Shown here: positions 21,059 to 37,449 of the stretch, piece after piece
Numbering within the stretch: position 1 is the first letter of the stretch
How the letters are laid out: every line of letters begins with the position of its first letter
Virus record (IMG/VR): IMGVR_UViG_3300042673_001351
Coordinates: 1-64,000 of that record
Length of the DNA: 64,000 nt
Origin: a virus
Taxonomy: Duplodnaviria; Caudoviricetes
Direction: 5' to 3' (one strand)
Notes under the pieces: generated by a model
The model's input: the letters and a program-made list of their open reading frames with translations, nothing else
The model's database searches: none
Told to the model about the DNA's origin: nothing
Translations under genes and position numbers: made by a program

Positions 21059-21594
21059 TCCTTAAAATCTGGGTCTACGAACTCTTGCTTGGTTGATTGC
21101 ATATAGAGGGCTGTATACCTACTACCAGAAGTAATTTCTTTAACCCCATGAATATATTGATAATCATTTCCTGGGAAAAATATAGCAGAATACTTTTTGG
21201 CCTTTAAAGAAAATGCTTGTTTAGGGAAATATATCTCTCCGCCCTCGTACTCGTCATTTAAATAAATTACGGTGCTATATTCTATGAATGGTTCTTTTTC
21301 AATTGCGTCTATGTGAGGACTTCCACTTTGTCCTGGCTGCCACCACGAGCCAAAAGCCTTAGTAACAATTACTTTGTCTTTTAAGTTAAAAAATTCTTTC
21401 TGAATGTGGTTTGCTCTTACTGAATATTTTTTAAGTATATCCATCACCCTATTGTTATATGGGAAAGCAGTTCCGCCGTTTCTATCTTTATAGTATTCTG
21501 GATATGGGTTTATTTTTGACGGCGATTGCATCTCTTCCATAAGAGAAAATGCATCTTGTTCTGATATAAAATCTTCTACTATTTTTATTAACAT
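21052..21594 (-). CDS. 2OG-Fe(II) oxygenase, prolyl 4-hydroxylase-like
   Basis: HID...YLNDEYEGGE...HGV...RYT. Confidence 0.9.
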   Translation of the reverse strand: MLIKIVEDFISEQDAFSLMEEMQSPSKINPYPEYYKDRNGGTAFPYNNRVMDILKKYSVRANHIQKEFFNLKDKVIVTKAFGSWWQPGQSGSPHIDAIEKEPFIEYSTVIYLNDEYEGGEIYFPKQAFSLKAKKYSAIFFPGNDYQYIHGVKEITSGSRYTALYMQSTKQEFVDPDFKEC

Positions 21595-22427
21595 TACCTG
21601 ATCTCCTTAATCCTATCAAGATATCTTAATCCGCCCATTCTATCTATTTGAGACTGGCCAGTGTCGTAAACAACATCGTTATCTTCAAACGGTAGCTGAA
21701 TTAAATTTATATTAAAGTTTTTTTGAATTTCATTTGAATATTTTTCAATAAATTGATTATAGTTATGGGTTAAAGAAAATGGGGTATATTTATCCTCTAC
21801 TGAATTTTTATTAATTGATATGTATTCGTCTGGGAAATTATAAATATCTACGCCACTATTAATTAAATCTATTGAAATACTTTCTTCTTCTCCGCAGTAT
21901 TTTAAGTGAGTTGGTTGATTTATTATTGCAAAATCTTCAGACAATGCAAATATAAAATTTCTGTCTATATAATTTATTTTATTAAAATTTGCAGATGGTA
22001 CTCTTTCTGGCTCTAGCATGAACCAATTTTTATTTTTTAAGGTAACTGTAGAATTTCCAGATAAAATTGAGTTTTTGTTATTCTTTAAAAATTCAACTGC
22101 ATGGATGTCCCAATCTTTAGCTAATGAAACATCGTCTCCAATTTGCATATAATATTTTTTATTCAGTGACTTAAATGCATCCCGCTTATATTCAATTGGG
22201 CTTTTAATAGAGTCCCACGTAACATATTTATAAACAATTGATGCATAAAAATCTGGTTGGTCTAGGGATCTAGTTCTGTCTACACTATTTTGATCAATAA
22301 TGTAAAAATATAACATATTTTTTTGACTAGATTTGTCTATAATTTCAGATACAGTTTTAAATAAATTTTTATTTTGATAGCTGTAAATGCATATACCAAT
22401 ATTTTCCATTATTTGAATGGTATCCAT
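21594..22427 (-). CDS. GT-A fold glycosyltransferase, GT60 (Skp1 hydroxyproline GlcNAc-transferase)-like, divergent
   Basis: ICIYSYQ, IIDQ, YYMQIGDD..L.KDWD and GEEESISI..G.DIY resemble the GT60 IASYRD / YYLQIDSH..F..WD / GEE patterns; the DSH motif is altered. Confidence 0.55.
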   Translation of the reverse strand: MDTIQIMENIGICIYSYQNKNLFKTVSEIIDKSSQKNMLYFYIIDQNSVDRTRSLDQPDFYASIVYKYVTWDSIKSPIEYKRDAFKSLNKKYYMQIGDDVSLAKDWDIHAVEFLKNNKNSILSGNSTVTLKNKNWFMLEPERVPSANFNKINYIDRNFIFALSEDFAIINQPTHLKYCGEEESISIDLINSGVDIYNFPDEYISINKNSVEDKYTPFSLTHNYNQFIEKYSNEIQKNFNINLIQLPFEDNDVVYDTGQSQIDRMGGLRYLDRIKEIR

Positions 22428-23071
22428 TTCATAGATTTACTATTTCTAATCTCTCTAAACGGAATAATATCGTATGCAATTGTTACTCTTGCTTGGTCTT
22501 GTTGCCAATCTCCTCTAGCATGGGGGTAGCCAGTTTCGGAAATAATTGCTCTATTATTTTTATTAACATTTTCAAATAAATCATTATTATTTTTATCTAG
22601 CTTATAGTATGTTATGGATGGCTCGGCATCTACACAATAGTACCCGTGAAAATGTGGTATGCCAGTTCCTCCAAAATGATCATGAAGTTGCTCTGGATTT
22701 TTTACTGGATCAACCTTATTCCCGATAGACTTATAGTCAAAATTAAACCAGCCATGTATTACATAGTTTTCAAAATTAAAATCTATTTCATAATATTCAC
22801 ATGCTTTTTTTGTAAGATTTTTTAATTCACAATATAGGTTATATATCTCATTGATTGGAAACATAAAAATATTATAATGATTTATTCCAATTTTTGTTGC
22901 TGCGCCTGGTAAATTTTTATATTTATCTAAAACCTCATTAGATAAATTTAAAGAATTTTCTTTAATAATTTCATCGTTTATTTTATATAAATATTTTGAT
23001 AGTTCTTGCGTATCATTATTTAAATATGATTCAAAAAATTTTTGTGGTTTATTTAACATATTGGCATCCAA
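22409..23071 (-). CDS. Putative 2OG-Fe(II) oxygenase (TIGR02466-like)
   Basis: GWFN...HDH...HGYYCV...HA...RVTIAYDI; paralogue of the next gene. Confidence 0.7.
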   Translation of the reverse strand: MDANMLNKPQKFFESYLNNDTQELSKYLYKINDEIIKENSLNLSNEVLDKYKNLPGAATKIGINHYNIFMFPINEIYNLYCELKNLTKKACEYYEIDFNFENYVIHGWFNFDYKSIGNKVDPVKNPEQLHDHFGGTGIPHFHGYYCVDAEPSITYYKLDKNNNDLFENVNKNNRAIISETGYPHARGDWQQDQARVTIAYDIIPFREIRNSKSMKWIPFK

Positions 23072-23700
23072 TGTTGTGGATGTGCATTGTTTGCTATTAA
23101 ACTTTTTAATGGAACTATATCGTATGCAATTGTTACTCTAGGGCCTTCCCAGTCCCAAGATCCCATTGCATGTGGATGTCCCATTTCTGATATGATAAGC
23201 CTGTTGTCTTTATTGTGGTTATCAACTTCTTTACCAAAAACTTTATAATACGTTGTAGATGGCTCTGCTTTTACGCAATAGTATCCGTGAAAATATGGAG
23301 CATACGGTCCACCGTGATCGTGCCAGTCCAGTTTTCCTTTGTCGTTATAATTAATATTAAACCAGCCTTGAATCATGTATTGTTGTTTTTCAAAATCAAC
23401 TTCATAATACTCACAAGCTTCTTTAACCATTTCTACAAGGTTTTTATATAGCTTATGTATTGATGGATGATAAAATTGAAAAACATTATACTCTCTCCAT
23501 TTTATAGTAGATACGCTATCTGATGACAGCCAATGATCTTTTTCTGTAACCTCTGTTATTCCAGACAACTTTAAGTTTTCCATATTAGAATATTGATTTT
23601 GTAAAAACTCTGCCAATTGACTAAGATCGTTATCTAAATATCTTTCAAAAAATTTATGCTCTTTGCCTGTTGGCTGGTTCATTTGCATATTATTAATCAT
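23053..23700 (-). CDS. Putative 2OG-Fe(II) oxygenase (TIGR02466-like)
   Basis: GWFNI...WHDH...HGYYCV...HA...RVTIAYDI. Confidence 0.7.
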   Translation of the reverse strand: MINNMQMNQPTGKEHKFFERYLDNDLSQLAEFLQNQYSNMENLKLSGITEVTEKDHWLSSDSVSTIKWREYNVFQFYHPSIHKLYKNLVEMVKEACEYYEVDFEKQQYMIQGWFNINYNDKGKLDWHDHGGPYAPYFHGYYCVKAEPSTTYYKVFGKEVDNHNKDNRLIISEMGHPHAMGSWDWEGPRVTIAYDIVPLKSLIANNAHPQHWMPIC

Positions 23701-24450
23701 TTATTTTCCCTTATACTGTTTACGTTGCCATACTATATTTTTATAATAGGCATAAATTGAAGACCTTCTTTTTTCATCTTTAATTTGATTCATTTCTTTC
23801 CCGTTAACCGAATAATCTATCTCCAAAGCCCAATCTTCTCTTTTAATTGGAATCATCTGAAATAGAGGTGTTCCTTTAGGTATTATACCAATAAAGTTCC
23901 TTTTTAGGAAGAAGGATGTAAATACTGGTGTGTGCCATAAATCGGAGTCTATTATTCCGCTAAGGGTGGTAAATGGCAAATCGTGTCTATTTAATGGGTG
24001 GGTTATTAATAAAGAATATCCTTTTGGTGTTTCCGAATACCAGTTTACTTTCCAACCAAAATGTAATGGGTGATGCTGTGTGGGGACTGGGACGTCTATC
24101 ATTAATCTTTTGTCCACTATCATGTTGTGTCCTTCCCAGGAAAGTACTGGAAATCCGTTTTTATCTTGAGTTACATGTAAATCATATTCTAGGGTATACA
24201 TGTAACCAGAAGTTAATGCGTCAAAAAATGGCATGCATAATTTTGTTGAAGCAGCGCTTCCATCGGTTCCTCTATCATTAACTGGGTGCAGCTTGCTAAT
24301 GTGATTAGATTTATAAAATCTAGAAAGCTTTTTATACCAATCTGGAAGATGAATTTTAGATTCTTCTGGCTCGACAATTAGTCCGTTGTTTAAGTCATCG
24401 GGATTAATTGAAAATCCTGGTGTAAATTTAACTATTAATTCTTTTTTCAT
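23701..24450 (-). CDS. DUF6065-like / dUTPase-fold protein
   Basis: KLCMPFFDALTSGY, TPKGYSLLITHP, GIIDSD and IPKGTPLFQMIP motifs. Confidence 0.6.
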   Translation of the reverse strand: MKKELIVKFTPGFSINPDDLNNGLIVEPEESKIHLPDWYKKLSRFYKSNHISKLHPVNDRGTDGSAASTKLCMPFFDALTSGYMYTLEYDLHVTQDKNGFPVLSWEGHNMIVDKRLMIDVPVPTQHHPLHFGWKVNWYSETPKGYSLLITHPLNRHDLPFTTLSGIIDSDLWHTPVFTSFFLKRNFIGIIPKGTPLFQMIPIKREDWALEIDYSVNGKEMNQIKDEKRRSSIYAYYKNIVWQRKQYKGK

Positions 24451-25156
24451 ATTCCCTTATTATTTTTTTAATAGTTTTTTTATCTGCATATACTTCTATA
24501 TCAAATAAATACGAACCTCTTTTTATTAACCCGCAAATATTGTCTTCCATATGATTTTTAGAGTTTGTAAAATAAAAATCAACAAAGTTTGCTTCTTTTA
24601 TTATAACATTTTCATCTGTTTTTGTAAAAGAATCTTTTTTTTCAATTATTTTTAGTGAAGGATTTTCTATATTGCATTTAATTAAATACTGTATGTCCAT
24701 GTCTAAAAACCAAGGAATATAAATTTTAAAAATTCTTTTAGAAATTGCATTTTCATCTACAATATTATATTGATTTTCTGATGGGTAAAATTGACGTAGC
24801 CAGCATTTATCGGTTGCATAAAAAAAACTATTAATTGGATTTGATTTGAATACCCCCCTATGCCCTAGCAACGGATCAGCTGTTTGAATTAATATATCCC
24901 CGTAGCTATAATATCTAATTGTTAAACTATTTTTAGAATTCTTTATTATCTCTGGCGGGTTAGAAAAATGATGGGCATACATGTTTACTGGTTTTAGAAT
25001 TGATTGTTTATAGGCAGGATCAGATTTAACATATTCCCATTCTTTCCACTTTGGAAACAAATTAGAGGTATGACATATTTGTTCAAAAGTCATTGTTGAC
25101 ATTAGAGACCAAGATTCCGCTTCATAGGGCACTCTATTAACTGTCTTATTGGTCAT
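24428..25156 (-). CDS. Hypothetical protein, possibly divergent DUF6065-like
   Basis: FKIYIPWF and GLIKRGSYLFDI echo the flanking paralogues. Confidence 0.5.
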   Translation of the reverse strand: MTNKTVNRVPYEAESWSLMSTMTFEQICHTSNLFPKWKEWEYVKSDPAYKQSILKPVNMYAHHFSNPPEIIKNSKNSLTIRYYSYGDILIQTADPLLGHRGVFKSNPINSFFYATDKCWLRQFYPSENQYNIVDENAISKRIFKIYIPWFLDMDIQYLIKCNIENPSLKIIEKKDSFTKTDENVIIKEANFVDFYFTNSKNHMEDNICGLIKRGSYLFDIEVYADKKTIKKIIREYEKRINS

Positions 25157-25887
25157 TTATATGTTTTCTTTTTCCAAAATTTCAGTCTATATCCATTTTG
25201 AAATACTGATCTAACCTGTAAAGTTTTTTCTTTTATTTTAGTATCTGACTGCCTGTCATCGCTTATTGAGCTCTCCCAGTCTTCTCTTTTAAATGGTATT
25301 ACTTGAATGATTGGAGTACCTTGTTTAATTATTCCCTTAAATCCTTTTTTAACAAAAAAAGATAGATATCCGTCTGACATATATGCGTCTGTGTCTATCA
25401 CTCCAGGGATAGATCTAATGGGAGAGTCCTCTGCATGCATTGGAGAAGTAAATAAACAACTGTGCCCTTCCTCTGTTTTAACTAACCACATTGGGTGAAT
25501 TCTAATAATTTCTTCGTGAAAATAATCTGGGATGGGATATTTAGCCATCTGCTCTTTTAAATGATGTGAAAGAATGTATTCTTTCCGCATTCCCATTATC
25601 TCAGATGTTACCTGTACTTTTATTTTATCTTCTGTTGCGTCTATAAATATATCCGTTGGGCATCTTAAATAGTATCCAAATGTCATTGAATCAAATATAG
25701 ATTGACATTTTTTAATTGTTAGCATCATTGTTCCGTTATGAATATTTTGATCGTTATTTAAATAGCTTTCTTGATGCTTCCACCACTCTGGTATGCTGGA
25801 CGCAACACTAACTGGCTCTGGGAATGCTTTTTTATATAACCTATACTTTGGAATAAATTCTATTTTAATCATGCTAGTGGTATCCAT
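25153..25887 (-). CDS. DUF6065-like / dUTPase-fold protein
   Basis: IKKCQSIFDSMTFGY, TEEGHSCLFTSP, GVIDTD and IKQGTPIIQVIPFKRE; paralogue of 23701..24450. Confidence 0.6.
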   Translation of the reverse strand: MDTTSMIKIEFIPKYRLYKKAFPEPVSVASSIPEWWKHQESYLNNDQNIHNGTMMLTIKKCQSIFDSMTFGYYLRCPTDIFIDATEDKIKVQVTSEIMGMRKEYILSHHLKEQMAKYPIPDYFHEEIIRIHPMWLVKTEEGHSCLFTSPMHAEDSPIRSIPGVIDTDAYMSDGYLSFFVKKGFKGIIKQGTPIIQVIPFKREDWESSISDDRQSDTKIKEKTLQVRSVFQNGYRLKFWKKKTYK

Positions 25888-26432
25888 TTTTGATAGTACT
25901 GCCTGTATAGATATTCTAGAGGAGAGATATTAAATGATAGTATTGTTAAACCATTACTTATTTTTTTAAACAATATCTTTGATGATGAATCTAAAAATAT
26001 TAATTGTCCAGGAATTAAATCAATTTTTTCATCATTTATAAAAATTTGATCTTTATTGCAATCTATAACATAAAATCCAACAAATGTAGTTTTATAATTA
26101 GGGGCAAAATTTAGATATGTGTCTAATGTAATAGTTTCTTTTTTAACTATATTGCCAAGTAAATAAAAATAATTTCTTTCAAAATTAACTCCATTTTTAA
26201 TGCAATATTCTTTTGTTAAATCAGATATTTCTTTATATAGAATATGAATGTTTTTGTTATACATTGCAAAAAAGTTAAATGTTTTATAATCAATTAAAGA
26301 AACTTTTTTAGGTTTAAACCCTAGCTTAATTCCTGGATTAAATTTATAAACATATTCGTGCATCTGAGAGATCATTTTATTATACTCGGAAAGCATAGTT
26401 TTGTTATTAATTGAATTAATATTTTTTATCAT
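25869..26432 (-). CDS. Degenerate paralogue of the TIGR02466-like oxygenases
   Basis: FNFF..IHILYKEI..YC, FVGFYVI and C-terminal KWIPL align with 22409/23053, but the iron-binding His residues are missing. Confidence 0.5.
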   Translation of the reverse strand: MIKNINSINNKTMLSEYNKMISQMHEYVYKFNPGIKLGFKPKKVSLIDYKTFNFFAMYNKNIHILYKEISDLTKEYCIKNGVNFERNYFYLLGNIVKKETITLDTYLNFAPNYKTTFVGFYVIDCNKDQIFINDEKIDLIPGQLIFLDSSSKILFKKISNGLTILSFNISPLEYLYRQYYQKWIPLA

Positions 26433-27063
26433 TTGGCTCCCAAATGCTCATAGAGTGAAATAATGCTGGAAATATCGGATCTTTGTATATGACTAATTCT
26501 GCTGGCATATTTATTTCAGGAAGTTTCCCAGGTGTCATCCCAACCTTAACTATTTTTTCAATTTTATCTTTGTTTAAATTAAACCTTTTTTTAGTTGCTG
26601 ATGCTATGAGGGAGGATCCGCTTAATGCTACGGCCTGTGTCCCTTGTGTATAGCCTGGGCCTAATCTTGGTAAAATGTTAAAAAATGTACACCATATTGG
26701 ATATCCAATTAAAGCTAATGATTCTATGTACTTTTTCTTTCGATGTATTGGGCTAGTATAGAACCTATCTGTTATTGCAGTATAGTGATCTTTATCATAT
26801 CCGTCTATAATTATTGTAGCCCAAGATGCTGGATAATCGTTGTTAATAAAATAAGACATAACAATTGTGCCAGACTCATTATCATCATTTTTATAAAGAC
26901 ATTCTATAGCTTGAGAATTCCATTTATCGGTAAGCACTGTATATTGTGCCCAAGTACCTTTTATGTATTGTGGATACCTTCTAAATTTAGGTACAGGTTT
27001 ACCTTTAAAATACCTAACTCCAGAAATTCCCATTAAGCGTAATTTCTTTACTTTTTTAAACAA
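26416..27063 (-). CDS. Hypothetical protein (weak GNAT-like motif)
   Basis: 215 aa; FYTSPIHRKKKY loosely resembles GNAT motif A. Confidence 0.45.
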   Translation of the reverse strand: MFKKVKKLRLMGISGVRYFKGKPVPKFRRYPQYIKGTWAQYTVLTDKWNSQAIECLYKNDDNESGTIVMSYFINNDYPASWATIIIDGYDKDHYTAITDRFYTSPIHRKKKYIESLALIGYPIWCTFFNILPRLGPGYTQGTQAVALSGSSLIASATKKRFNLNKDKIEKIVKVGMTPGKLPEINMPAELVIYKDPIFPALFHSMSIWEPNDKKY

Positions 27064-27078
27064 ATTAATTCCTGACTA

Positions 27079-28368
27079 CTAGGCTTGGTCTTGAGAATCT
27101 CTCCATTGTTGATACATTGCATCTAGCTTATCGCTAAATGTTTCATCGCTAGAAGTTAATGCGTTTGCATCACTTTTTGCTCTATATGAATCGTGTACTA
27201 GCGCATTGTCTGTAAAGAATAAGTCGTATGGCTCTACGTCAATTGATATTAGTAACTCTTTTTGTGTAGTTACTTTATAGTCTGTAATTTCTTTCCAGTC
27301 ATTTTCGCTTGGTGAAAAAATTAAATCTGTTTCCAATACGCTTGATGATGGTTGGAATTGAATCTGTCCATCTCTTTTTATTAAAATAAAGTGTTGTAAA
27401 GAATATTTATTTCCATTAATAACAATAGCTCCTTCGTCAGAAATTCTTGCTGCCATTGCAACAATGGTAGTTTCGGCTGGGGATATGTTTGCGCTATTAA
27501 CAGACCAATTTTGTAAATATTCTAATATTGCTGTATTTGAAACATCTATTCCCTCGATATTAGCAGAGTATAAAACGTCGCCAACGCTTAGGTTGTGTGC
27601 AAGGATTAATCCTTCTGGCACCTTTGATTTAATAACTGTTTCTGCTCCAACCGATTTTGGAGTAAAGCCAAATGGAGTAAATCCAAACGGAGTAAATCCA
27701 AACGGAGTAAATCCAAACGGTGTAAATCCAAATGGGGTAAATCCAAATGGGCTAAAACTAAATGGTGTTGTAGTAACTGAGTTTGAATTTCCGCTGTATG
27801 ATGAAAAACCATTAGCGTTTTGAGCTCTTACCCTAACGGTTTGAGCTTCATTTCCGTTTTCTGATAGGTTAGCGCTAAATGTACTAGAGTTATATGACGT
27901 AACATCATTTTCATGATCAATTAATCCATATCCAGTAATGTCTTTTCCACCATTATTTCCTGGGGCTGACCAAGAAACAGAGTTCGTTTCTGCTCCATTA
28001 TTTGAAAGACTTGGAGCGCTTGGTGTTTGTGGAACTGTTGTTGCTGTTATTGAATTACTTGCGTCTGACGGCACAGAATTACCAACTGCGTTTGTAGCTA
28101 TAACTGTAAATGTATAACTAGTTCCAGATTGTAAACCTTCTACCGTAATAGGAGAAGAAGATCCAGAAGCAGTATAACTTCCTGGACTTGAGGTAACTGT
28201 ATATGAAGTAGCTGGTGGGGAATCTACGCTCATTGTAAATGGTACAGATGAGGCTCCATTATTAAATGCTCTATCTGTTCCTATATCTGTTGCTGTTCCG
28301 ATAATTGGCTTAAATGGCTCTAAAAAGTCATTGGCCGATTGGCTCATTCTACCTGCTTGTTTTGACAT
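27079..28368 (-). CDS. Fibronectin type III x2 + (FTPFG)n repeat + Hint autoprocessing domain protein
   Basis: GLQSGTSYTFTVIATNAVG FN3 motif; six FGFTP repeats; Hint from K|SVGAETVI through SLQH to ALVHD|S. Confidence 0.8.
   Translation of the reverse strand: MSKQAGRMSQSANDFLEPFKPIIGTATDIGTDRAFNNGASSVPFTMSVDSPPATSYTVTSSPGSYTASGSSSPITVEGLQSGTSYTFTVIATNAVGNSVPSDASNSITATTVPQTPSAPSLSNNGAETNSVSWSAPGNNGGKDITGYGLIDHENDVTSYNSSTFSANLSENGNEAQTVRVRAQNANGFSSYSGNSNSVTTTPFSFSPFGFTPFGFTPFGFTPFGFTPFGFTPFGFTPKSVGAETVIKSKVPEGLILAHNLSVGDVLYSANIEGIDVSNTAILEYLQNWSVNSANISPAETTIVAMAARISDEGAIVINGNKYSLQHFILIKRDGQIQFQPSSSVLETDLIFSPSENDWKEITDYKVTTQKELLISIDVEPYDLFFTDNALVHDSYRAKSDANALTSSDETFSDKLDAMYQQWRDSQDQA
27658..27765 (-). 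repeat. 15-bp tandem coding repeat encoding FGFTP
   Basis: GGAGTAAATCCAAA(C/T) units with synonymous variation. Confidence 0.9.
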
Positions 28369-28392
28369 ATATAATCTCCTCTATTATTTTCT

Positions 28393-30576
28393 TTAAGCTA
28401 AAAGATCTCCGAAAACTAACCAACCGCTTGGAGTTTTCATTGCTGTTACAACCGAATTTGTAGTTCTAAACTTTAATCCTGGTGTACCAACAACACTGTT
28501 TGTTGAAGCAAATGATGCTCCAGTTCCTGATGCTTGGTAGAAATCAATTGATTGACCAGTTGAGTATCCAGATGAAGGAAGAGTAATTTGTACTGCTCCA
28601 TTTATTGGGATAAACTTGTCTTGCTCACCAGATGCGAGTGTTTCTGATGATGTTCTCTCTGTTCCAAATGTTGTGATAGATGGAACGCCAACTTTTGTCT
28701 GTGTTCCGTCTGAGAATGCAATTCCAGATGCTGAAACAGTTACTGTGCCAGTAAATGTTGGAGCATCAATTGGTGACTTGGTGTCTATTTGAGTCTGAAT
28801 TGCTGATGTGACTCCATTTAGATATTGAAGTTCTGTATTTGATACATCTCCAATAGTTGCTGACGCTGCTTCAAATCCAGCAACCTGTAGGTTATCAAGT
28901 GATCCTTGAGTAAAGTTGACTGTGGTAGCTGGTTCGTCTGTTACGTCCTTGAACAACTTCCACTTAGCGTCTGATACGTCTCTTACTATACCAGCATGCT
29001 TTCCTGAACCATCGTTATAAGCAACTACAAGACCAAGGTCTACTGTGTTACTTGCATTTTGGTGGGCAAGCTGAAGCATGTTATCTTCAATTGTAATAGA
29101 TGTTGCTGATGCGTTAAATGTTGTACCGTTAATTGTTAGGTCTCCATCAACTACAAGGTTCTGATCAATTTCAACTGAGCCTGTAAATACTGCTCCAGAC
29201 AATGAAGCCTTTCCATCAATTTGTCCTTGAATTCCTGAAGTTACTCCGTTAACATATCCAATCTCAGTTGATGAAACATCTCCGATTGATGTTGTTGAAG
29301 GAAGGACTACTGTTCCAGTAAATGTTGGGCCTTCTAAGTTAGCCTTTAGGTCAAGTGCTGCTTGTGTAGCAGTTGAAACTGGCTTATTAGCATCTGTCGT
29401 GTTATCAACATTTCCAAGGCCTACTGAAGACTTTGTAAGCGCTGCTACTGCAGTTGAGATCTTTGTATCTGCTGCTGTTCCTGCTGCTGTAATTGCATCT
29501 GATTCTGCTGTGTCTGCGTACTCTTTTGTTGCTAGAAGTGAAGTATCTGCAATTCCGTGTACGTTGGTTGTGTCTGCTGTGAGAGTACTGATAGCATCAT
29601 CTACATATTTTTTAGTAGATGCTTGTAAATCAAATGTAGGAGCACCGTTTAAAGTTAAAGCTCCAGTCATAGATGAACCAGATTTTAACATTAAATCTGC
29701 TGTGTTAACAATGCCATGAACATCTGTTGAGTCAGTACTATGATTAGTCATTGCGGTTCCTATTGCTGAATCTGCATAAGTATTTGCGTCTGCCTCTGCT
29801 TGATCTACATAAGATTCAGTAGCAAGTTCTGCTGTATCTGCAATTCCGTGTACGTTTGTTGTAGATGATCCGTGTGCTATTCCTGCTGCAGACAAATTTC
29901 CAAGTGATGTTGTGACTCCTGCAGCATAGTTTGCGTCATCTCCAATTGCTGCAGCAAGCTCGTTAAGTGTATCTAGTGCTCCTGGTGCCGCATCTACTAA
30001 ATTGTTAACTGCTGATGTAATATCAGATGTCAACGCTACAGTTCCTGAAGAATTTGGGAAAGTAATTGTTCTGTTTGCTGTAGGGTCTACTACTGTAAGA
30101 ATAGTTTCATAAGCATTTGCAGTTGCGCCTTCTAAAACAATACTTGACTTAGGAACTAACAGGTTACCGTCAACATCTAGCTTTGCTGGTCCGCCTGCAT
30201 TTCCGACGTCTGCTAGTAATACATAATCTGCGGCTGTTGAGTTTTCTAATCCAGTTACTTGACTGTCAACATAAGATTTAAGTGCTACAACTGATGAGTC
30301 AATATTAAGAGAAATTGTATTTGTGGCATCGTTGTAAGATTTTGTAAGACCTGATCCCATTGAAAGGGCTGTGTCAATTGCATCTTGTGCAATTTCTGTA
30401 ATTCCTGGTGCATCTGATGCGATGTATGAAAGGCTAGTCCATGCTGTGCTTCCAGTTCCAACTTTAATTTTTCTGGTGTCTGTTTCAACACCCATTTCAC
30501 CTGCAGCTAGTGTAGGATTTGCTGAGGTCCATTCTGATGCTGTTCCTCGTCTTACTTGAATTCTTACTGTTGACAT
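28393..30576 (-). CDS. Tail/head fibre protein with Mtd-N-like N-terminus
   Basis: RIQVRRGTASEWTSANPTLAAGEMGVETDT; TTNVHGIADT repeats; APGALDTLNELAAA module; C-terminal TPGLKFR..WLVFGDL. Confidence 0.8.
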   Translation of the reverse strand: MSTVRIQVRRGTASEWTSANPTLAAGEMGVETDTRKIKVGTGSTAWTSLSYIASDAPGITEIAQDAIDTALSMGSGLTKSYNDATNTISLNIDSSVVALKSYVDSQVTGLENSTAADYVLLADVGNAGGPAKLDVDGNLLVPKSSIVLEGATANAYETILTVVDPTANRTITFPNSSGTVALTSDITSAVNNLVDAAPGALDTLNELAAAIGDDANYAAGVTTSLGNLSAAGIAHGSSTTNVHGIADTAELATESYVDQAEADANTYADSAIGTAMTNHSTDSTDVHGIVNTADLMLKSGSSMTGALTLNGAPTFDLQASTKKYVDDAISTLTADTTNVHGIADTSLLATKEYADTAESDAITAAGTAADTKISTAVAALTKSSVGLGNVDNTTDANKPVSTATQAALDLKANLEGPTFTGTVVLPSTTSIGDVSSTEIGYVNGVTSGIQGQIDGKASLSGAVFTGSVEIDQNLVVDGDLTINGTTFNASATSITIEDNMLQLAHQNASNTVDLGLVVAYNDGSGKHAGIVRDVSDAKWKLFKDVTDEPATTVNFTQGSLDNLQVAGFEAASATIGDVSNTELQYLNGVTSAIQTQIDTKSPIDAPTFTGTVTVSASGIAFSDGTQTKVGVPSITTFGTERTSSETLASGEQDKFIPINGAVQITLPSSGYSTGQSIDFYQASGTGASFASTNSVVGTPGLKFRTTNSVVTAMKTPSGWLVFGDLLA

Positions 30577-30617
30577 ATTTATTACCCCTTATTTGCTAAT
30601 TATAGCATTTATTTTTG

Positions 30618-30974
30618 TTAAACTATAACTCCAGAATCAAATGTTATCCCATATAATGAAGTATCTGGGCCACCACCGTCTGCGAATTTAGTTGCTGTTG
30701 TACTTACTCCGTTTGCTTGAACTGTATAGACTGGAAGACCATTATAATCTATAGCTAGTCCAATGTCCATAAAGCCTATTTCTGTTTGACTATCTGGAAT
30801 GTCCGACACAAATGCAATTGGGCTCCAGGTTCCATTTAACTGGATCTGTAGCTTATTTGTTGTTGTGTCAAATCTAAGGGGTGTATTGCCTAATACAACG
30901 TTAGAGTCAAAGGTAGCGTTTCCTGCTACGTTTAACCCGTTTTTTACTCTAAAGTTTTTATCTGTTGTTGCCAT
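30618..30974 (-). CDS. Small virion structural protein
   Basis: MATTDKNFRVKNGL N-terminus resembles that of the next fibre gene. Confidence 0.6.
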   Translation of the reverse strand: MATTDKNFRVKNGLNVAGNATFDSNVVLGNTPLRFDTTTNKLQIQLNGTWSPIAFVSDIPDSQTEIGFMDIGLAIDYNGLPVYTVQANGVSTTATKFADGGGPDTSLYGITFDSGVIV

Positions 30975-31042
30975 TTAAGTTCACATATCCCCTAATTGTT
31001 TTTTGTGGGGAGATTCAGGCTCTCCCCTAGCCTTTTATTTAA

Positions 31043-32635
31043 TTATTTAATTAATGTTCCAACTACAACAACTTCAGTGTTATTGTTTGCTGGTGTTACT
31101 CGAATTCTTACATCTGAGCCAGAATAATCTGCAGTTATTGCAGCTAACTCTGTTCCGTTTGAATATGTAATTCCATATTCAGAAACTGCTACGTTGTTAG
31201 AAGTATCAAGTGTAACTACTAAGTCTGATACCTGGGTGTGGCTACCATTTTTTGCTTTAATTACAAGCTTAGCGCTTCGGTAATCTTCTGCTGCCCATGA
31301 GATAGCAGTTGTTGCTGCAGCGGTTACAATATTTCCAGTTGTTGCTGCAACTTGCTTGGCAACAGAGTTGTAATTAATTGCTGTAAATGATGTAGTTCCG
31401 TTTTGCTGTGCTGTATTAGCTGCTGCTGCTGTGGCTTCTGCTGCTGCTTGAGCTGCGTTAGCCTTTGATGTTGCATCTGCTGATGCTGTTGAGATAGCGG
31501 CTGCTTGGGCTGCGTTGGCCTTTGATGTTGCATCTGCTGCTGCTGTTGCTTCTGCTGCAGATTGGGCTGCGTTGGCCTTTGATGTTGCGTCTGATGCTGC
31601 TGCTGATTGGGCTGCGTTGGCCTTTGATGTTGCATCTGCTGCTGCTGTGGCTTCTGCTGCTGCTTGAGCTGCGTTGGCCTTTGATGTTGCATCTGATGCT
31701 GCTGCAGATTGGGCTGCGTCTGCTTCGCCCTTAGCAAATGCTGTGGTTGCAATCTGAGTTGTGTTAGTATCTGCTGCTGCTGTAGGAGCTGTTGGAACTC
31801 CAGTAAGATCTGGAGAAGCAAGCGGTGCCTTTGTTCCCAAAGCTGTTGTAATAGTTGTTGTGTAATTAGCGTCATCATTAATTGCTGCTGCTAATTCATT
31901 TAATGTATTAAGAAGTGCTGGTGCACCATCTACTAATGAATCTACTGCAGTTGAAATTGCTGTATTACGGTTTGAAACCTCTGTTGAGATTGCAGTTGAA
32001 AGTGCTGATGCTGCAGTGGCTTCTGCTGCTGCTTGAGCTGCGTTGGCTTTAGTTGTAGCATCTGTTGCTGCTGCTGTAGTTGCTGCAGACTGTGCTGCGT
32101 TAGCCTTTGATGTTGCATCTGCTGATGCTGTTGCTTCTGCTGCTGCTTGAGCTGCGTTAGCCTTTGATGTTGCATCTGCTGATGCTGTTGAGATAGCGGC
32201 TGCTTGGGCGGCATCTGCCTTAGTGGTTGCATCTGCTGATGCGGTTGCTACTGAGGCTGCGTCGCCTGATACTCTAAGTGCTGCTTCTGCTGCTACTTTT
32301 GTTGTAGCGTCTGTTCCTGCTGCTGTAATTGCTGCTGACTGTGCTGCGTTAGCCTTTGATGTTGCATCTGCTGATGCTGTTGCTTCTGCTGCTGACTGTG
32401 CTGCGGCTGCTGCGCCTGATGTATCAAATACGCCAGATTTAATATTAAGCTCTCCAGCAATAACTTCCATCTGTGTTGATTCAACAGAGTTTATAAGATT
32501 GGTTCCACCAACAAGATTGAGAATGTAAGCATCTCCGCCTGTTTCTGTAAGTATGTTTTGGCCATTGATTGTTCCTGTTGATCCTTCAACTACAAGGCCT
32601 TGTTTGATTCTAAAGTTTTTTACTACCGTTGCCAT
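31043..32635 (-). CDS. Ala-rich repeat fibre protein
   Basis: Many ADATSKANAAQ repeats; APALLNTLNELAAA module; C-terminal beta domain YRSAKLVI..VSEYG. Confidence 0.75.
   Translation of the reverse strand: MATVVKNFRIKQGLVVEGSTGTINGQNILTETGGDAYILNLVGGTNLINSVESTQMEVIAGELNIKSGVFDTSGAAAAAQSAAEATASADATSKANAAQSAAITAAGTDATTKVAAEAALRVSGDAASVATASADATTKADAAQAAAISTASADATSKANAAQAAAEATASADATSKANAAQSAATTAAATDATTKANAAQAAAEATAASALSTAISTEVSNRNTAISTAVDSLVDGAPALLNTLNELAAAINDDANYTTTITTALGTKAPLASPDLTGVPTAPTAAADTNTTQIATTAFAKGEADAAQSAAASDATSKANAAQAAAEATAAADATSKANAAQSAAASDATSKANAAQSAAEATAAADATSKANAAQAAAISTASADATSKANAAQAAAEATAAAANTAQQNGTTSFTAINYNSVAKQVAATTGNIVTAAATTAISWAAEDYRSAKLVIKAKNGSHTQVSDLVVTLDTSNNVAVSEYGITYSNGTELAAITADYSGSDVRIRVTPANNNTEVVVVGTLIK
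31420..32420 (-). repeat. Coding repeats (ADATSKANAAQ) in fibre gene
   Basis: Recurrent GCCTTTGATGTTGCATCTG units in two blocks. Confidence 0.85.
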
Positions 32636-32651
32636 TTTATCTCCTGCCGTC

Positions 32652-33209
32652 TTAAGACTTTAAAGACGTTCTGTAATATCTAGCGGTTACAGATCCACTT
32701 ATTGGTGCTACGTTTAAACTTATTATACCTGAATTTTCTTCAAAAGTAACATTAGCAAGAGTACTGCTTGTGTTAGATATAATATTTGATTCTACTACAT
32801 TTAAATTTGTTCCATCGTTTAATAATAAAATATCTGATGTTGCGTATTCGCTTCCTTTTGAAATCTGAAGCTTGTATGAAACTGTCCTGTATGCTGTTTT
32901 TGAAAACTCATCTACTTTTGTTTTGTTTTCAATTCCCGCAATTGTAAGGTCATTGTTTCCTTCTAGGCCTAAAAGAACTTCTGCCACTGAGGTTGAGTTT
33001 TCAATGTCTTGCAATTGAGCAATTACATCTGCTACCTTATAGTCTAAAGAGTTTACATCTTGAGAGCCATTGACTCCAACTTTTGCTTGTAATGCCTCTA
33101 TCGCATCATTAGCGTTAGTATGTTGTTGCGAGTGAGATGGACTAGATAACGCATCCGTTGAGTTTGGATTTGTTAATGAGTCTATCGAACTTGGAAAATT
33201 TGTTGCCAT
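32652..33209 (-). CDS. Virion structural protein
   Basis: MATNFPSSID..HSQQHTNANDAIEALQAKVG fibre-type N-terminus; C-terminal domain similar to that of 31043..32635. Confidence 0.65.
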   Translation of the reverse strand: MATNFPSSIDSLTNPNSTDALSSPSHSQQHTNANDAIEALQAKVGVNGSQDVNSLDYKVADVIAQLQDIENSTSVAEVLLGLEGNNDLTIAGIENKTKVDEFSKTAYRTVSYKLQISKGSEYATSDILLLNDGTNLNVVESNIISNTSSTLANVTFEENSGIISLNVAPISGSVTARYYRTSLKS

Positions 33210-33275
33210 TGTTTTATTGCTCCAAAATTATGACTTGTAGGTATATTATATCCTATTTATTGTTATAGGACACAC

Positions 33276-34304
33276 CTATTTTTTTATTAAATTTTGCCAT
33301 TCTGTATACATTACTATAAGCTTTTCTGAAAAATCCTCTTCTGATGAATTGATTGCATTTGGGTCTAGTGCTGCGTTGTAGGAATCATGGACTAAGGCGT
33401 TATCTGTAAAAAATACATCATATGGCTCTACGTTTATAGAAACTACTAGCTCTGTAGAGTTTATTGGCATCCACTGAGTGACTGGGTTCCAGTCTTGTGT
33501 CATTGGAGAAAATATGAAATCTGCTAATGTAACATCAGTAACATTTTTAAATTTTATTCCTTCATTATTTTTAATCAGAACCCAGTGCGCTTTAGAATAT
33601 TTGTTTTCATTGATAACAATAGCCCCATCTGTAATTCTTGCAGCCATTGCAACTACGGTAGTTTCTATGTCTGTATCTATTAATGTGTCTTGTGTTGACC
33701 AATTTTGTATGTAATTTGCAATTTGATCATTAGATGTATCAATTCCTTCAATTGCAGCAGAATAAAGTACGTCTCCAACTTTTAAGTTATATGCCAATAT
33801 TAATCCTTGTGGATTTTTACTTTTAACTAAAGTAGCTGCTCCTAAAGATTTACCTCCCTCGCCTGGGGTGGGTGCAAATGAAAAACCTGTAAAATTATAT
33901 GTTGTAAAATCATATGGAGGCACTACAACTGGTGTAAATGAAAATGGATTCAATTCTTCCCAGGTAAAGCCATATGGCGGGGGATCAACTGGAGGATCTG
34001 GTGGTGCGGTAAATGAAAATGGTGTAAAGCCAAATGGAGTAAAGCTAAAAGATCCATATGTGTATTCTATTTGAGTTCCTACGGGAACAACTGAATTTTC
34101 TGCAATAGACTGATCAATTATTTTTCCACCCAAAGATTCATTTGAAGTTCCTGTGTTATTTTCTATAACAGATAATCCTAAACTATTTAATAATGATAAG
34201 GCTTCTGACCTAACCATTCCAACAGTATTTGGAATAGATACCCTTTTTTTAATTTTTGAAGATCTAAAGCGTCTCACGCCTTTAGGTCTCCTAAAACTAC
34301 CCAA
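33276..34304 (-). CDS. PASTA domain + Phe/Thr/Pro repeats + Hint autoprocessing domain protein
   Basis: IPNTVGM..A..LL..LGL...GKIIDQS...VPVGTQI PASTA pattern; FSFTPFGFTPFSFT; Hint from K|SLGAATLV through SKAH to ALVHD|S. Confidence 0.78.
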   Translation of the reverse strand: MGSFRRPKGVRRFRSSKIKKRVSIPNTVGMVRSEALSLLNSLGLSVIENNTGTSNESLGGKIIDQSIAENSVVPVGTQIEYTYGSFSFTPFGFTPFSFTAPPDPPVDPPPYGFTWEELNPFSFTPVVVPPYDFTTYNFTGFSFAPTPGEGGKSLGAATLVKSKNPQGLILAYNLKVGDVLYSAAIEGIDTSNDQIANYIQNWSTQDTLIDTDIETTVVAMAARITDGAIVINENKYSKAHWVLIKNNEGIKFKNVTDVTLADFIFSPMTQDWNPVTQWMPINSTELVVSINVEPYDVFFTDNALVHDSYNAALDPNAINSSEEDFSEKLIVMYTEWQNLIKK

Positions 34305-35635
34305 GAATTTGCTGATCTTTTAATTAAACTTGCGCTTGACCATTGAGATCTTAATTTTAAACCTGGTGTTGCATTTGGGGTAAATCCGTCTCCAGCAATA
34401 GTAACTTGATTTGATGTAGTTTGTAATACTTCAATATATGTTCCAATAGGGAAATTATAGGTAGAGTCGTTTGGTATTGTCAAAGTGCTAACTTCTGTCA
34501 TCTCTATCATTTTGTTTGCATCTGAACCTTGTAGTGTGTATGAAGAAGATTGAGAATTTGTTACAATTAAAAACTTTTCTATATCTGAGGTGTTATCCAC
34601 GTTTCCAAGCCCAACCATTGTTTTTGTAATGCCTGATACGGTGCCTGTAAATGTTGGTGAGGCTAATGGAGCTTTAAGATTAAGAGCGTTTAATGTGTCT
34701 GTTGATATTGGTTTAAGAGCGTCTGTTGTATTATCAGCATTTCCTAAGCCTACCATATCTTTAGTAATACCCGAAACCGTTCCAGTAAATGTTGGTGAGG
34801 CTAATGGAGCTTTTGCTGTTAATTCTGTGGTTATTGTTGCTGCGTACGATGCGTCGTCATTAATTGCTGCGGCTATTTCATTTAAAGTATTTAAAGCACC
34901 TGGTGCTGCATCTATTAAGTTTGAAATTGCAGTTCCAACGTATGTTTCAGTTGCATATCCAGTTAAATTTGGAATGGTTGGTTTGCCAGAAAGATCATCA
35001 TATGCTCCGCTAAACAAAGAAGGCTTACCAGTTAAATCTACATAAGAGCCGCTAAACAAAGAGGGCTTGTTAGTTAAATCGTTATAAGATCCACCAAATA
35101 GTGTTGGCTTATCAGTTAGGTCAATATAAGATCCGCTAAACAGTGTTGGTTTATCGGTTAAATTATTATAAGACCCAGGAAATAAAACAGGCTTGTTGCT
35201 TAAATCATTATAGCTAGTAGGAACTTGTGATAGCAACGCTATTGTTCCTGATGCGCTGGGAAGATTTACTGTTATGTCTGAGGCTACGTCTGGGGATTGT
35301 AGTGTTAATTCATAATCGTTTGCAGTAGAGCCTTCTATAATAATTTTGTCTTTTGGAATTAGTAGGTTTCCGTCAATATCTAATTTTGCTGGGCCTCCTG
35401 CATTTCCAACATCTCCAACTTCCACATATGAAGACAAGGTGTTTTCTAAATCTTGAGTGGTAAGAGAGCTGTAGTATGAAGTGCTACTCCAACTAGATCC
35501 GTTTCCAATTTTAAATTTATTTAAATCTGAGGATATAGCAATTTCTCCAGCAAGCAATATTGGATTATCTCTAACCCAGTCAGACTCTATGTCTCTTCTT
35601 AATTGAATTCTAACTACCACTTGAGCTTCCTCCAT
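34274..35635 (-). CDS. Fibre protein with Mtd-N-like N-terminus and 14-aa repeats
   Basis: RIQLRRD..W...NPILLAGE; FSGSYxDLTxKPxL repeats; C-terminal TPGLKLR..WVVLGDL. Confidence 0.78.
   Translation of the reverse strand: MEEAQVVVRIQLRRDIESDWVRDNPILLAGEIAISSDLNKFKIGNGSSWSSTSYYSSLTTQDLENTLSSYVEVGDVGNAGGPAKLDIDGNLLIPKDKIIIEGSTANDYELTLQSPDVASDITVNLPSASGTIALLSQVPTSYNDLSNKPVLFPGSYNNLTDKPTLFSGSYIDLTDKPTLFGGSYNDLTNKPSLFSGSYVDLTGKPSLFSGAYDDLSGKPTIPNLTGYATETYVGTAISNLIDAAPGALNTLNEIAAAINDDASYAATITTELTAKAPLASPTFTGTVSGITKDMVGLGNADNTTDALKPISTDTLNALNLKAPLASPTFTGTVSGITKTMVGLGNVDNTSDIEKFLIVTNSQSSSYTLQGSDANKMIEMTEVSTLTIPNDSTYNFPIGTYIEVLQTTSNQVTIAGDGFTPNATPGLKLRSQWSSASLIKRSANSWVVLGDLKA
34975..35220 (-). repeat. 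About six 42-bp coding repeats (FSGSYNDLTDKPTL)
   Basis: Seen in the translation. Confidence 0.8.
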
Positions 35636-36074
35636 TTATTATTAATGTATACTCATTAATAGAATCTCCACCGTTAAGAATTACACTATCTGATTCAGGG
35701 GAATACAGAGAATCTGAAAACCCTCCAGGAAGCAAAGACAGTCTTTCAAAACTAGGTGCGTCTACTATATCACTTGGGCCGCCACCATCAATACCTACAA
35801 CAACTGGAATACTTTCTGAAACACTTTGTGTAGTATTAACATCTTTAAATGTAATTGGATTTTCTACATCTATTGTGTGTACTGCTCCATCGTATGCGTG
35901 TGTATGCATATAAAATGGGGTTGGATCATCGCTTTGTGGGGTAATGTCTACCCAAAAATCTCCATTATATATTCTAATATTTTTTGTTAAAATATTAAAG
36001 TATACGTCACCCTCTAAAGCTGTAGATGGATTTTCTGCCAGCGTTAGAAGGTTTAATAAAGACTTAAGTTTCAT
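35610..36074 (-). CDS. Virion structural protein
   Basis: NPSTALEGDVYFN..IRIYNGDFW fibre motif; D/NGG motifs. Confidence 0.6.
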   Translation of the reverse strand: MKLKSLLNLLTLAENPSTALEGDVYFNILTKNIRIYNGDFWVDITPQSDDPTPFYMHTHAYDGAVHTIDVENPITFKDVNTTQSVSESIPVVVGIDGGGPSDIVDAPSFERLSLLPGGFSDSLYSPESDSVILNGGDSINEYTLIINGGSSSGS

Positions 36075-36081
36075 TTTTTAT

Positions 36082-37449
36082 TTAGCCTATTACTACTACT
36101 TTGTATTCTCCTGATGCAGGTGCTACTGCAAATTTAATAGTTACGGCAGATGCAGATGTTAATTCTACGTCTGTCTCAACTTTAGCATATGGAGAAGCTG
36201 CTTGCGAAACCTGTACTAAAACATCAGTTGAACCCAAGTTATGAGTAACTGTGTATGATGTTGCTACTGAGTTTAATGTCTCGACATACTTTCTAGTTAT
36301 TGCATGATAGTTAGTTCCATCATTTGTAACTGTCCATTTATCTGAGGACTCGTTCCATAGAATTTCAACATCTGTTTCGCTGCCTCGCTCTACACGAATT
36401 CCAGCGTCTGCTACTGGTGCTCCAGTAAAGTCAGTATTAAGATTAATCTTATTATCAACAATGTTTACCTGGGTCGTATTTACAGAGTTAACTGTTCCTG
36501 TAACATTTAAGTTGCCACCCACAAGAAGATTGCCAGTAATTGTTACGTCATCTGGAAGCCCAATTGTTACTGCTGAATTTTCTGATCCTGAACCAGAAAC
36601 TGTAATTTCATTTGCTGTTCCAGCAATTGTTGCAATATAGTTACCAGTTGTTTGTGTTGCAAGATTAACATTTTTAATACTTACTGCGCCATCTGTGACG
36701 GTAAAGTCTGCGTCTGCAAATGAAGCAACACCACGATTTGTAGTTGTTGCAATTTCTGCATCTACTGTTAGGGTTCCTGCTGTATCATCGTATGATACAT
36801 CAATGCCTTCTCCAGCAACAATTTGTGAAGAAACAATATCTTGTACACGCTCAGCATTTAATGTTACTGCGCCTGCTGCTACGGTAAAGTCTATGGCATC
36901 AAAACTTGCAACACCTTTATTAGATGAAGTTGCGTCTTCTGCTGATACTGTAATTGTGTTGTTTGTTACGGCAACGTCAATTCCTTCTCCACCTGCAACG
37001 GTTAATGTATCGGTTAATAAATCAACTGTGTCTGTTCCAGTGTCTCCAGCAATTGAAAGATTAGTTGCTACGTTTACTGTTCCTGCTGCAGTCAAACGAC
37101 CTTGTGCGTCTACTGTAAATGTAGGAATTGCTGTTGTAGATCCGTATGATCCAGCTGTTACTGATGTGTCATCTAAATCAATTACTGTTGTTCCTGTTGA
37201 GTCTGTATACGTTGCGGTTAAGCCAGTGCCACCAGAAACGTATGCACCAATAGCATCTTGAATTACTTCTAGGGAGCCAGATGTTGGGATCCAGGTTGTT
37301 CCGTCATAAAAGTATACAATTTTATCTACTGTGTTAAAATATATTTGACCTTCTACTGGGCTTGAAGGCGCAGTACTAAGGTTTTGAATTCGAGCATTTT
37401 GTAATTCATTTTTGTTAAGGTCTAAGCTAACTAAAAATTTTCTTGCCAT
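36082..37449 (-). CDS. Fibre / virion structural protein
   Basis: APSSPVEGQIYFNT, VTAGSYG..IPTFTVDAQGRLTAA, AGIRVERG, VTHNLG motifs. Confidence 0.7.
   Translation of the reverse strand: MARKFLVSLDLNKNELQNARIQNLSTAPSSPVEGQIYFNTVDKIVYFYDGTTWIPTSGSLEVIQDAIGAYVSGGTGLTATYTDSTGTTVIDLDDTSVTAGSYGSTTAIPTFTVDAQGRLTAAGTVNVATNLSIAGDTGTDTVDLLTDTLTVAGGEGIDVAVTNNTITVSAEDATSSNKGVASFDAIDFTVAAGAVTLNAERVQDIVSSQIVAGEGIDVSYDDTAGTLTVDAEIATTTNRGVASFADADFTVTDGAVSIKNVNLATQTTGNYIATIAGTANEITVSGSGSENSAVTIGLPDDVTITGNLLVGGNLNVTGTVNSVNTTQVNIVDNKINLNTDFTGAPVADAGIRVERGSETDVEILWNESSDKWTVTNDGTNYHAITRKYVETLNSVATSYTVTHNLGSTDVLVQVSQAASPYAKVETDVELTSASAVTIKFAVAPASGEYKVVVIG

Follow-up and report, generated by a model that had tools for sequence, protein, structure and literature searches.

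Introduction

Hint domains are known from inteins, from bacterial intein-like (BIL) domains and from Hedgehog proteins. According to the accessible part of PMC4031507, cleavage predominates over splicing in BIL domains and a nucleophile at the +1 position is absent, while in Hedgehog, as described in the accessible part of PMC12054796, C143 is the equivalent of a +1 nucleophile and forms a branched intermediate. The two genes analysed here, A and B, lie in a 64,000-nt stretch of viral DNA (the window; positions 1 to 64,000 of the IMG/VR record IMGVR_UViG_3300042673_001351, Caudoviricetes). Their products, P0001 and P0002, each carry near the C-terminus a domain of 155 residues that is predicted to adopt the Hint fold and is followed by a short, conserved tail beginning with Ser.

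The domain shares features with each of the described systems. Like type A BIL and pretoxin (PT-HINT) domains, it is a non-mobile Hint domain in a host protein, with an N-terminal nucleophile, a T/S-x-x-H motif and a cyclisable last residue. It departs from them in that position 1 is Ser instead of Cys, the end is His-Asp instead of His-Asn and Ser+1 is conserved; no toxin domain follows it, its place being the extreme C-terminus of phage fibre-module proteins. Distant members of its family have Cys1 and a terminal His-Asn with a variable +1 residue. The Hog domain of Hedgehog is likewise a C-terminal Hint domain behind a functional N-terminal module and has a short helical extension after it, whereas the window domain is viral, uses Ser instead of Cys, retains a terminal Asp/Asn and precedes a tail of 35-36 aa that is unrelated in sequence. 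A sterol or small-molecule adduct is a feature of Hog; for the window domain, sequence and model point to no sterol, other ligand or acceptor. Class-1 mini-inteins, such as that of Aes123 PolB1 (9hth), have the same fold and carry Ser1, T/S-x-x-H, a penultimate His and Ser+1 in register. The window domain differs from them in lying outside the conserved sites of housekeeping proteins and in containing no homing endonuclease, and searches limited by length windows and word indexing found no allele free of it; its "C-extein" of 35 aa is predicted to dock on the domain itself, and Asp replaces Asn. The C-terminal intramolecular chaperone and self-cleaving domains of phage tail spikes and fibres (Peptidase S74) are also self-removing C-terminal modules, but the analogy is functional only, since fold and chemistry are unrelated and the window proteins have no Pfam match to Peptidase S74.

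A literature search, supplements aside, turned up no paper that describes a phage fibre protein with a C-terminal Hint domain. The accessible parts of the papers on phages phiCbK, CBB, AD1 and PaBG (PMC3556154, PMC5259590, PMC6143709, PMC7412058) do not mention the domain, those on phiCbK and CBB reporting only terminase or ribonucleotide reductase inteins or none. Already on record are the inteins, BIL domains and Hedgehog Hint domains themselves and automatic "Hint domain containing protein" labels on a few viral relatives. We could not find in print the combination described below, that is, a large viral family with terminal Hint domains in fibre-module proteins, FG-like linkers, a Ser1/His-Asp/Ser+1 residue set and a docked tail.

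Results

An earlier note on this DNA had described two paralogous modules, and alignment bears this out, the C-terminal parts of the two gene products being 52% identical over 254 columns (E 3e-81), far beyond chance. The features it had listed, namely domains of 155 aa that start at a Lys-Ser junction, SLQH or SKAH motifs, ALVHD ends followed by Ser, a shared tail motif and preceding aromatic repeats, were all found in the sequence, and Pfam agrees that the N-terminal parts differ, with two fibronectin type III (FN3) domains in P0001 (fn3 in two stretches, E 1.2e-9) and a PASTA domain in P0002. The junction falls between K238 and S239 in P0001 and between K152 and S153 in P0002 (numbering of the open reading frame (ORF) that begins at TTG). 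The near clade comprises 87 clusters at 90% identity, all metagenomic and all "hypothetical" or unnamed. The junction motif KS[VIL][GS]A and the VHDS end are present in 87 of 87, and the class-1 residue set of Ser1, S-x-x-H, His-Asp and Ser+1 is invariant. The PF[GS]F[TSA] unit that precedes the junction occurs in 3-9 copies among 64 near relatives of the FN3 type, most often in six, and this variation in copy number indicates that the repeat array expands and contracts.

Curated sequence libraries gave no direct support for the proposed Hint fold. Neither window protein matched the Hint-type Pfam families (Intein_splicing, PT-HINT, Hint, Hint_2, Hom_end_hint and Vint) at E≤1 or a Hint-type family of NCBIfam, and in PHROGs the one match, to phrog_38766 ("virion structural protein"), was weak. 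Searching PDB sequences with the full-length alignment (A1) returned FN3 matches only. A profile restricted to the domain (14 sequences) produced one match, the cysteine-less Aes123 PolB1 intein (9hth, E 0.057), with S-x-x-H aligned on TADH and LVHDS on LVHAS, in which Ala is the mutated Asn.

The fold was instead supported by structure prediction. AlphaFold2 (AF2) modelled full-length P0002 poorly (predicted local distance difference test (pLDDT) 58.9), and its best Foldseek matches were nonetheless inteins and BIL domains. The 192-aa Hint-plus-tail part of gene A, modelled from a domain alignment of 38 rows, reached a pLDDT of 93.3 and a predicted template modelling score of 0.88. Foldseek found 42 PDB matches to this model at E≤1e-3, and among the matches listed all were inteins, BIL or Hedgehog domains; the top match was the ciliate BIL2 domain, and the Cth BIL domain 2lwy aligned with a TMt of 0.81 and a root-mean-square deviation (rmsd) of 2.8. 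With VIA-align, 74 chains scored Z≥8 and the 50 entries listed were again all inteins, BIL or Hedgehog domains. Class-1 mini-inteins gave Z 13.7-16.1, the highest being the Ssp DnaB mini-intein 1mi8 (Z 16.1, rmsd 1.8 Å over 131 residues), and comparable values were obtained for BIL2 6y75 (15.9), Hedgehog 1at0 (15.8) and the Cth BIL domain 2lwy (15.0). Since model residues 2 to 156 aligned with residues 1 to 440 of the Mtu RecA intein, the Ser after Lys corresponds to Cys1 and the last Asp to the terminal Asn440. The profile match and the structural comparisons with Foldseek and VIA together support the mapping of Ser1, S-x-x-H and the terminal His-Asp onto intein catalytic positions, as the earlier note had supposed. 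The confident model thus confirms, at the level of prediction, a Hint fold with its termini meeting at the active site, and homology shows the predicted geometry of the catalytic residues to be in place.

Whether the domain behaves as a mobile intein was judged from its distribution. Proteins with the same N-terminal signature (MSKQAGRMSQSANDFLEP-like) and a complete C-terminus always contain a Hint domain, which belongs to one of several sub-types: HD followed by Ser, FD, YD, or HN followed by Lys. No Hint-less allele was found among these proteins, in searches limited by length windows and word indexing. Three proteins with the signature and without a Hint domain end inside the repeats and look truncated or frameshifted, and were rejected as Hint-less alleles. 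In a search with the tail alone, all 58 matches were Hint-bearing members of the family. Mean pairwise identity among 34 FN3-type orthologues was 0.73 for the Hint domain, 0.67 for the tail and 0.56 for the FN3 part, making the Hint domain the best-conserved globular part. There is no homing endonuclease within the 155-aa mini-Hint. The C-terminal signature of an intein, a cyclisable residue followed by a nucleophilic +1 residue, is present as His-Asp before Ser, Asp being an accepted variant in the accessible part of PMC4031507; the marks of a mobile intein (insertion at a conserved site in a host protein, intein-free alleles and an endonuclease) were not found. On this sequence evidence the domain is classed as a non-mobile Hint domain and not as a mobile intein.

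The wider family was collected by a profile search of 1.84 billion cluster representatives, which returned 220 proteins at E≤1e-3, including 81 at ≤1e-10 and 22 at ≤1e-30; the best 150 of the 220 matches were examined. In nearly all of these representatives no further domain follows the Hint domain, and the median number of residues after the final Asp/Asn is six (14 or fewer in 129 of 146, 15-50 in 14 and more than 50 in three). The N-terminal parts are adhesin-like, with fn3 and/or PASTA in 45 of the 84 proteins scanned with Pfam, and BACON, CBM_4_9, He_PIG, TIG, Calx-beta and collagen repeats elsewhere. Just ahead of the junction the sequence is nearly always of low complexity, consisting of poly-Pro, poly-Gly or aromatic repeats of the FGFTP type. 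Of the 114 representatives that could be scored at position 1, 109 have Ser (63) or Cys (46) there. Block B has Ser or Thr in 145 of 150 and His in 135, with Gln replacing His in nine; the last residue is Asp in 74 and Asn in 67 (141 of 150), and the penultimate one is His in 97, Tyr in 24 and Phe in 19. The family forms a continuum from a canonical-looking form, with Cys after Gly and a terminal His-Asn, to the form in the window, with Ser after Lys and His-Asp before Ser. Identity across it is only 20-30%, and conservation in the aligned sequences shows the putative nucleophile, the block-B His and the terminal Asp/Asn to be under strong purifying selection.

Database annotation of the family is sparse, most relatives being unnamed or "hypothetical protein" and a few bearing automatic Hint labels. 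A Hint-type Pfam match was obtained for 15 of 84 wider relatives, one of which (P0231, PT-HINT, 31.6 bits) reaches the curated cut-off. In the ESM Atlas the neighbours are "hypothetical protein" clusters of viral (Uroviricota) origin, and in some of these clusters a minority of members carry PT-HINT or Intein_splicing. BFVD contains viral relatives, some of which, from uncultured Caudovirales, bear automatic labels ("Hint domain containing protein", "PASTA_pknB domain" or "Fibronectin type III"). Genes A and B had no DNA or protein match among 50,697 cultured-phage records. Only the distant members P0103 and P0177 lead to cultured phages, Erwinia and Dickeya jumbo phages, and the cultured relatives found all belong to the Erwinia Y3/Dickeya AD1 group of "hairy" jumbo myophages. 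The gp108-like protein of Dickeya phage AD1 (locus L020, 5002-6441) combines collagen-like Gly-X-Y repeats with a C-terminal Hint domain that has Cys1 and His-Asn followed by Thr. It is annotated "virion structural protein", its gene lies among tail and tail-fibre genes, and it is a tractable model for the family. A pattern scan of species-representative bacterial genomes, based on alignment A2, found no relative; one apparent match (locus L028) was a formate-dehydrogenase operon read off-frame and was discarded.

The segment after the Hint domain varies among relatives. The 35-36-aa tail is confined to one clade (Shimodaira-Hasegawa-like approximate likelihood-ratio test (SH-aLRT) 99; 36 of 55 rows of a quick tree). 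Other proteins end in four residues, S-x-S-[IV], or carry a helical extension of about 95 aa, the first part of which resembles the tail (P0102, P0241 and others); P0248 and P0298 have a Flg_new domain after the Hint domain, and P0128 a second Hint domain in tandem. All long C-extensions in the D-type clades begin with Ser. Whether Ser, Thr or Cys at +1 goes with a long C-extension could be compared in only four independent pairs on supported branches (sign test, p 1), too few to be informative.

In the 192-aa monomer model the tail has a pLDDT of 91-96. Supplied as a separate chain, it was predicted to bind the Hint domain with an ipSAE of 0.68, the best of three controls reaching 0.00. Of 157 solved complexes 116 attain the ipSAE mark, as do 2 of 215 mismatched pairs, a calibration that is rough since custom alignments were used. 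The complex runs agree in at least 81% of contacts, with a partner pLDDT of at least 69. The predicted contacts involve the conserved tail residues N165-S170, F174, L178, M181, Y182 and W185 and, on the Hint domain, residues 5, 21, 24-25, 67-72 and 132-135 (numbering of the 192-aa model). In alignment A3, the patch at 67-70 is small in tail-bearing rows (AMAA, SLSA, ALAA) and bulkier in tail-less ones. These predictions support docking of the tail on the Hint domain. Since its conserved residues are predicted to pack there, such docking best explains the conservation of the tail, and Hint domain and tail together look more like the Hint-plus-C-terminal-extension arrangement of Hedgehog HhC than like an extein whose role lies elsewhere.

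The window is part of a viral record of 82.6 kb that is estimated to be 76% complete and holds a long-tailed phage gene set, including a 2126-aa tape-measure protein, a portal, a prohead protease and a major capsid protein. Every gene from 38273 down to 1 is on the minus strand. Genes A and B, the only two copies of the Hint-tail module in the record, lie inside a block of tail-fibre-type genes at 27079-37449 (PHROG tail-fibre families; Pfam Mtd_N). Each directly follows an Mtd_N fibre gene (Table 1), and these two fibre genes are paralogues (E 7e-34). The genes downstream of A and B (26416-27063 and 32652-33209) are not related, which limits the duplicated unit to the fibre and Hint genes. 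The start of gene B is most likely the GTG at 34277 rather than the TTG at 34304, because this GTG overlaps the stop of the upstream fibre gene (GTGA, 34274-34277) and matches the starts of homologues; the overlap suggests translational coupling.

Table 1. Positions of genes A and B, their parts and the adjoining fibre genes in the window.
Feature	Position	Strand	Evidence
Gene A (P0001, 429 aa): N-terminal signature, two FN3 domains, (PFGFT)7, Hint, tail	27079..28368	-	ORF; Pfam
15-nt tandem repeat, 7.2 copies, 91% matches, encoding (PFGFT)7 just before the Lys/Ser junction	27658..27765	-	TRF
Hint-fold domain of gene A, S239-D393, 155 aa	27190..27654	-	AF2, VIA, Foldseek
Ser1 of gene A	27652-27654	-	
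Block-B His326 of gene A	27391-27393	-	
His392-Asp393 of gene A	27190-27195	-	
Ser-initiated 36-aa tail of gene A: extended segment and amphipathic helix, predicted to dock on Hint	27082..27189	-	pLDDT, complex prediction
Gene B (P0002): PASTA, aromatic/Pro linker, Hint, tail	33276..34277	-	333 aa from GTG 34277; TTG ORF reaches 34304
PASTA domain of gene B	34065..34241	-	Pfam PF03793, E 2.5e-9, residues 22-80; Foldseek PASTA matches
Aromatic/Pro-rich low-complexity linker of gene B (FxFTP-like units, PPDPP)	33852..34055	-	Translation; pLDDT <50
Hint-fold domain of gene B, S153-D307, 155 aa	33384..33848	-	Identity to gene A module; Foldseek intein/BIL matches with full-length model
Ser-initiated 35-aa tail of gene B	33279..33383	-	Alignments
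Mtd_N tail-fibre gene directly upstream of gene A	28393..30576	-	Pfam Mtd_N 9.5e-17; PHROG tail-fibre families
Mtd_N tail-fibre gene directly upstream of gene B	34274..35635	-	Pfam Mtd_N 2.2e-8

Gene order is conserved in related viruses. Downstream of the FN3-type gene lie the same five genes in 17 of 17 related IMG/VR loci, and both Hint genes are visible in loci L001 and L012-L017, while L009 contains a more divergent second copy. For the distant relative P0103, which has four PASTA domains, the Hint gene adjoins a fibre-related gene in four of the five loci found with it, and this neighbour is a homologue of the last ~100 residues of the fibre encoded at 34274-35635. The setting supports a virion or tail-fibre context for genes A and B, and the conserved adjacency supports a functional partnership of the Hint gene with the distal end of the fibre, as a matter of gene linkage and not of binding.

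In the tree, the Hint domains of the two paralogues in the window are mutually closest clades (SH-aLRT 95), relative to both copies in L012-L017, and protein P0022 is of the FN3 type with a Hint domain of the PASTA clade; both hint at gene conversion or module exchange between the paralogues. Between genes A and B, 31043-32635 (minus strand) encodes a 530-aa tail-fibre-like protein consisting mostly of Ala/Ser/Lys-rich repeats (ADATSKANAAQAAA-type); in the DNA these correspond to tandem repeats of 57 nt and 102/114 nt at 31420-31743 and 32005-32260. The FN3-Hint gene is followed directly by six genes of about 190-250 aa at 22409-27063 (minus strand). The five nearest to the Hint gene (23701-27063) keep their order in those related loci that are long enough to show them. 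Two of the six (23701-24450 and 25153-25887) are paralogues that belong to phrog_7084, and one of these has a weak DUF6065 match. Three 2OG-Fe(II) oxygenase-like genes occur within 19707-21594 and 47376-48041; an SDR reductase, a possible GlcNAc transferase at 21594-22427 and a GT4 glycosyltransferase at 40598-41587 are also present. A link between these genes and modification of the Pro/Thr-rich repeats would be pure speculation.

Discussion

The reading favoured here, which we hold to be a good possibility although somewhat short of probable, is that a BIL- or Hedgehog-like Hint-plus-tail unit removes itself at the Lys-Ser junction of a tail-fibre-associated accessory or adhesin precursor. 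In such a precursor, two FN3 domains or PASTA would serve as the binding module, followed by a sticky low-complexity linker rich in aromatic residues and Pro and then by the non-mobile Hint domain with its tail folded back. Ser1 would attack the carbonyl of Lys(-1) in an N-to-O acyl shift, assisted by the His of S-x-x-H. Resolution of the ester would then let the Hint-plus-tail unit remove itself in a single turnover and would leave the binding module with the aromatic repeat as its new C-terminus. The terminal His-Asp before Ser may serve an additional C-terminal cleavage or, like C143 of Hedgehog, act as a branched-ester station. That the reaction takes place at all is inferred, as is resolution of the ester by hydrolysis and not by splicing or transfer. 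The earlier note had offered cleavage, splicing or ligation of a small molecule as outcomes of autoprocessing; the Hint fold and the catalytic mapping support the premise, the outcomes are not separable by sequence, and weight shifts away from splicing because most of the wider family has almost no C-extein, no Hint-less allele was found in the searches described above and the tail is predicted to pack on the Hint domain.

Several points weigh against self-removal of this kind. Pure N-terminal cleavage leaves unexplained both the conservation of the final Asp/Asn and the retention of Ser+1 throughout the HDS clade, even where the tail has four residues; together with the Hedgehog C143 precedent, these speak for a reaction of some kind at the C-terminal junction. 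The position aligned with the block-F Asp of inteins in the Aes123 profile match is Ser or Thr, sub-clades have Tyr or Phe for the penultimate His, Ser nucleophiles are slower than Cys, and Pfam and NCBIfam do not recognise the domain. The docked tail could, moreover, simply pre-position a C-extein for splicing.

True splicing, in the manner of a cysteine-less class-1 intein, would run from the Ser1 ester through transfer to Ser+1 and cyclisation of Asp, and would join the repeat to the 35-36-aa helix as the functional C-terminus of the mature fibre protein. We regard this as unlikely. The class-1 residue set that is invariant in 87 of 87 near relatives, the identity of the best PDB sequence match as a Ser1/Ser+1 intein and the Ser that opens every long C-extension of the D-type clades all speak for it, as do inteins ending in Asp, Gln or Glu that splice by cyclisation (accessible part of PMC4031507). 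It has to contend, however, with the lack of a Hint-less allele among N-signature proteins or tail-only matches and of a homing endonuclease, with a Hint domain more conserved than its host domains, and with C-exteins that are almost absent in most family members; the conserved residues of the tail are predicted to touch the Hint domain and not a partner, and the four phylogenetically independent pairs give no sign that Ser+1 goes with long tails. A domain that retains the Hint fold without processing, as a catalytically silent structural or binding module of a virion protein, would account for the Tyr or Phe at the penultimate His in 43 of 150 representatives, the Gln at the block-B His in nine, the block-F position that is not Asp, and the bare annotation of the cultured AD1 gp108-like relative as "virion structural protein". 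It is nevertheless a rather doubtful explanation, since the nucleophile, the block-B His and the final Asp/Asn are kept across a family of such low identity, which is hard to explain without chemistry.

Transfer of the Hedgehog or BUBL kind, in which an external nucleophile on a partner fibre, another virion protein or a molecule of the host envelope resolves the ester, would leave the adhesin covalently tethered and make the docked tail an adduct-recognition region. The order of parts, a functional N-terminal module before a C-terminal Hint domain and helical extension, is that of HhC in the accessible part of PMC12054796. The top Foldseek match to a ciliate BIL2 domain, the conserved pairing with the C-terminal domain of Mtd_N fibres and the variety of C-extensions (none, the 35-aa helix, the helix of about 95 aa, Flg_new) point the same way. 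No acceptor was identified, however, a conserved terminal Asp/Asn is not a Hedgehog feature and gene adjacency by itself is weak evidence of a covalent link, so that transfer appears improbable. The same low standing is given to a more specific conjecture, that the virion uses the Hint domain for a single round of ligation, in which the ester may pass through a branched ester at Ser+1, as at C143 of Hedgehog, to a nucleophile on the Mtd_N fibre or the host envelope, covalently tethering the FN3 or PASTA adhesin through its FG-like linker, with the tail or alternative C-extensions selecting the acceptor. If true, bacteriophage particles would contain a protein-ligation system of the Hedgehog kind.

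Taken together, the findings point to the C-terminal end of phage tail-fibre-module proteins as a fourth large setting for Hint domains, besides inteins, Hedgehog proteins and bacterial BIL and pretoxin domains. The chemistry predicted for the window domains would depend on oxygen nucleophiles only, with Ser1, His-Asp and Ser+1. If active, the family would represent a new step of post-translational maturation or attachment in phage adsorption organelles, and would offer protein engineering small (155-aa) modules of natural origin that cleave or splice themselves without cysteine.

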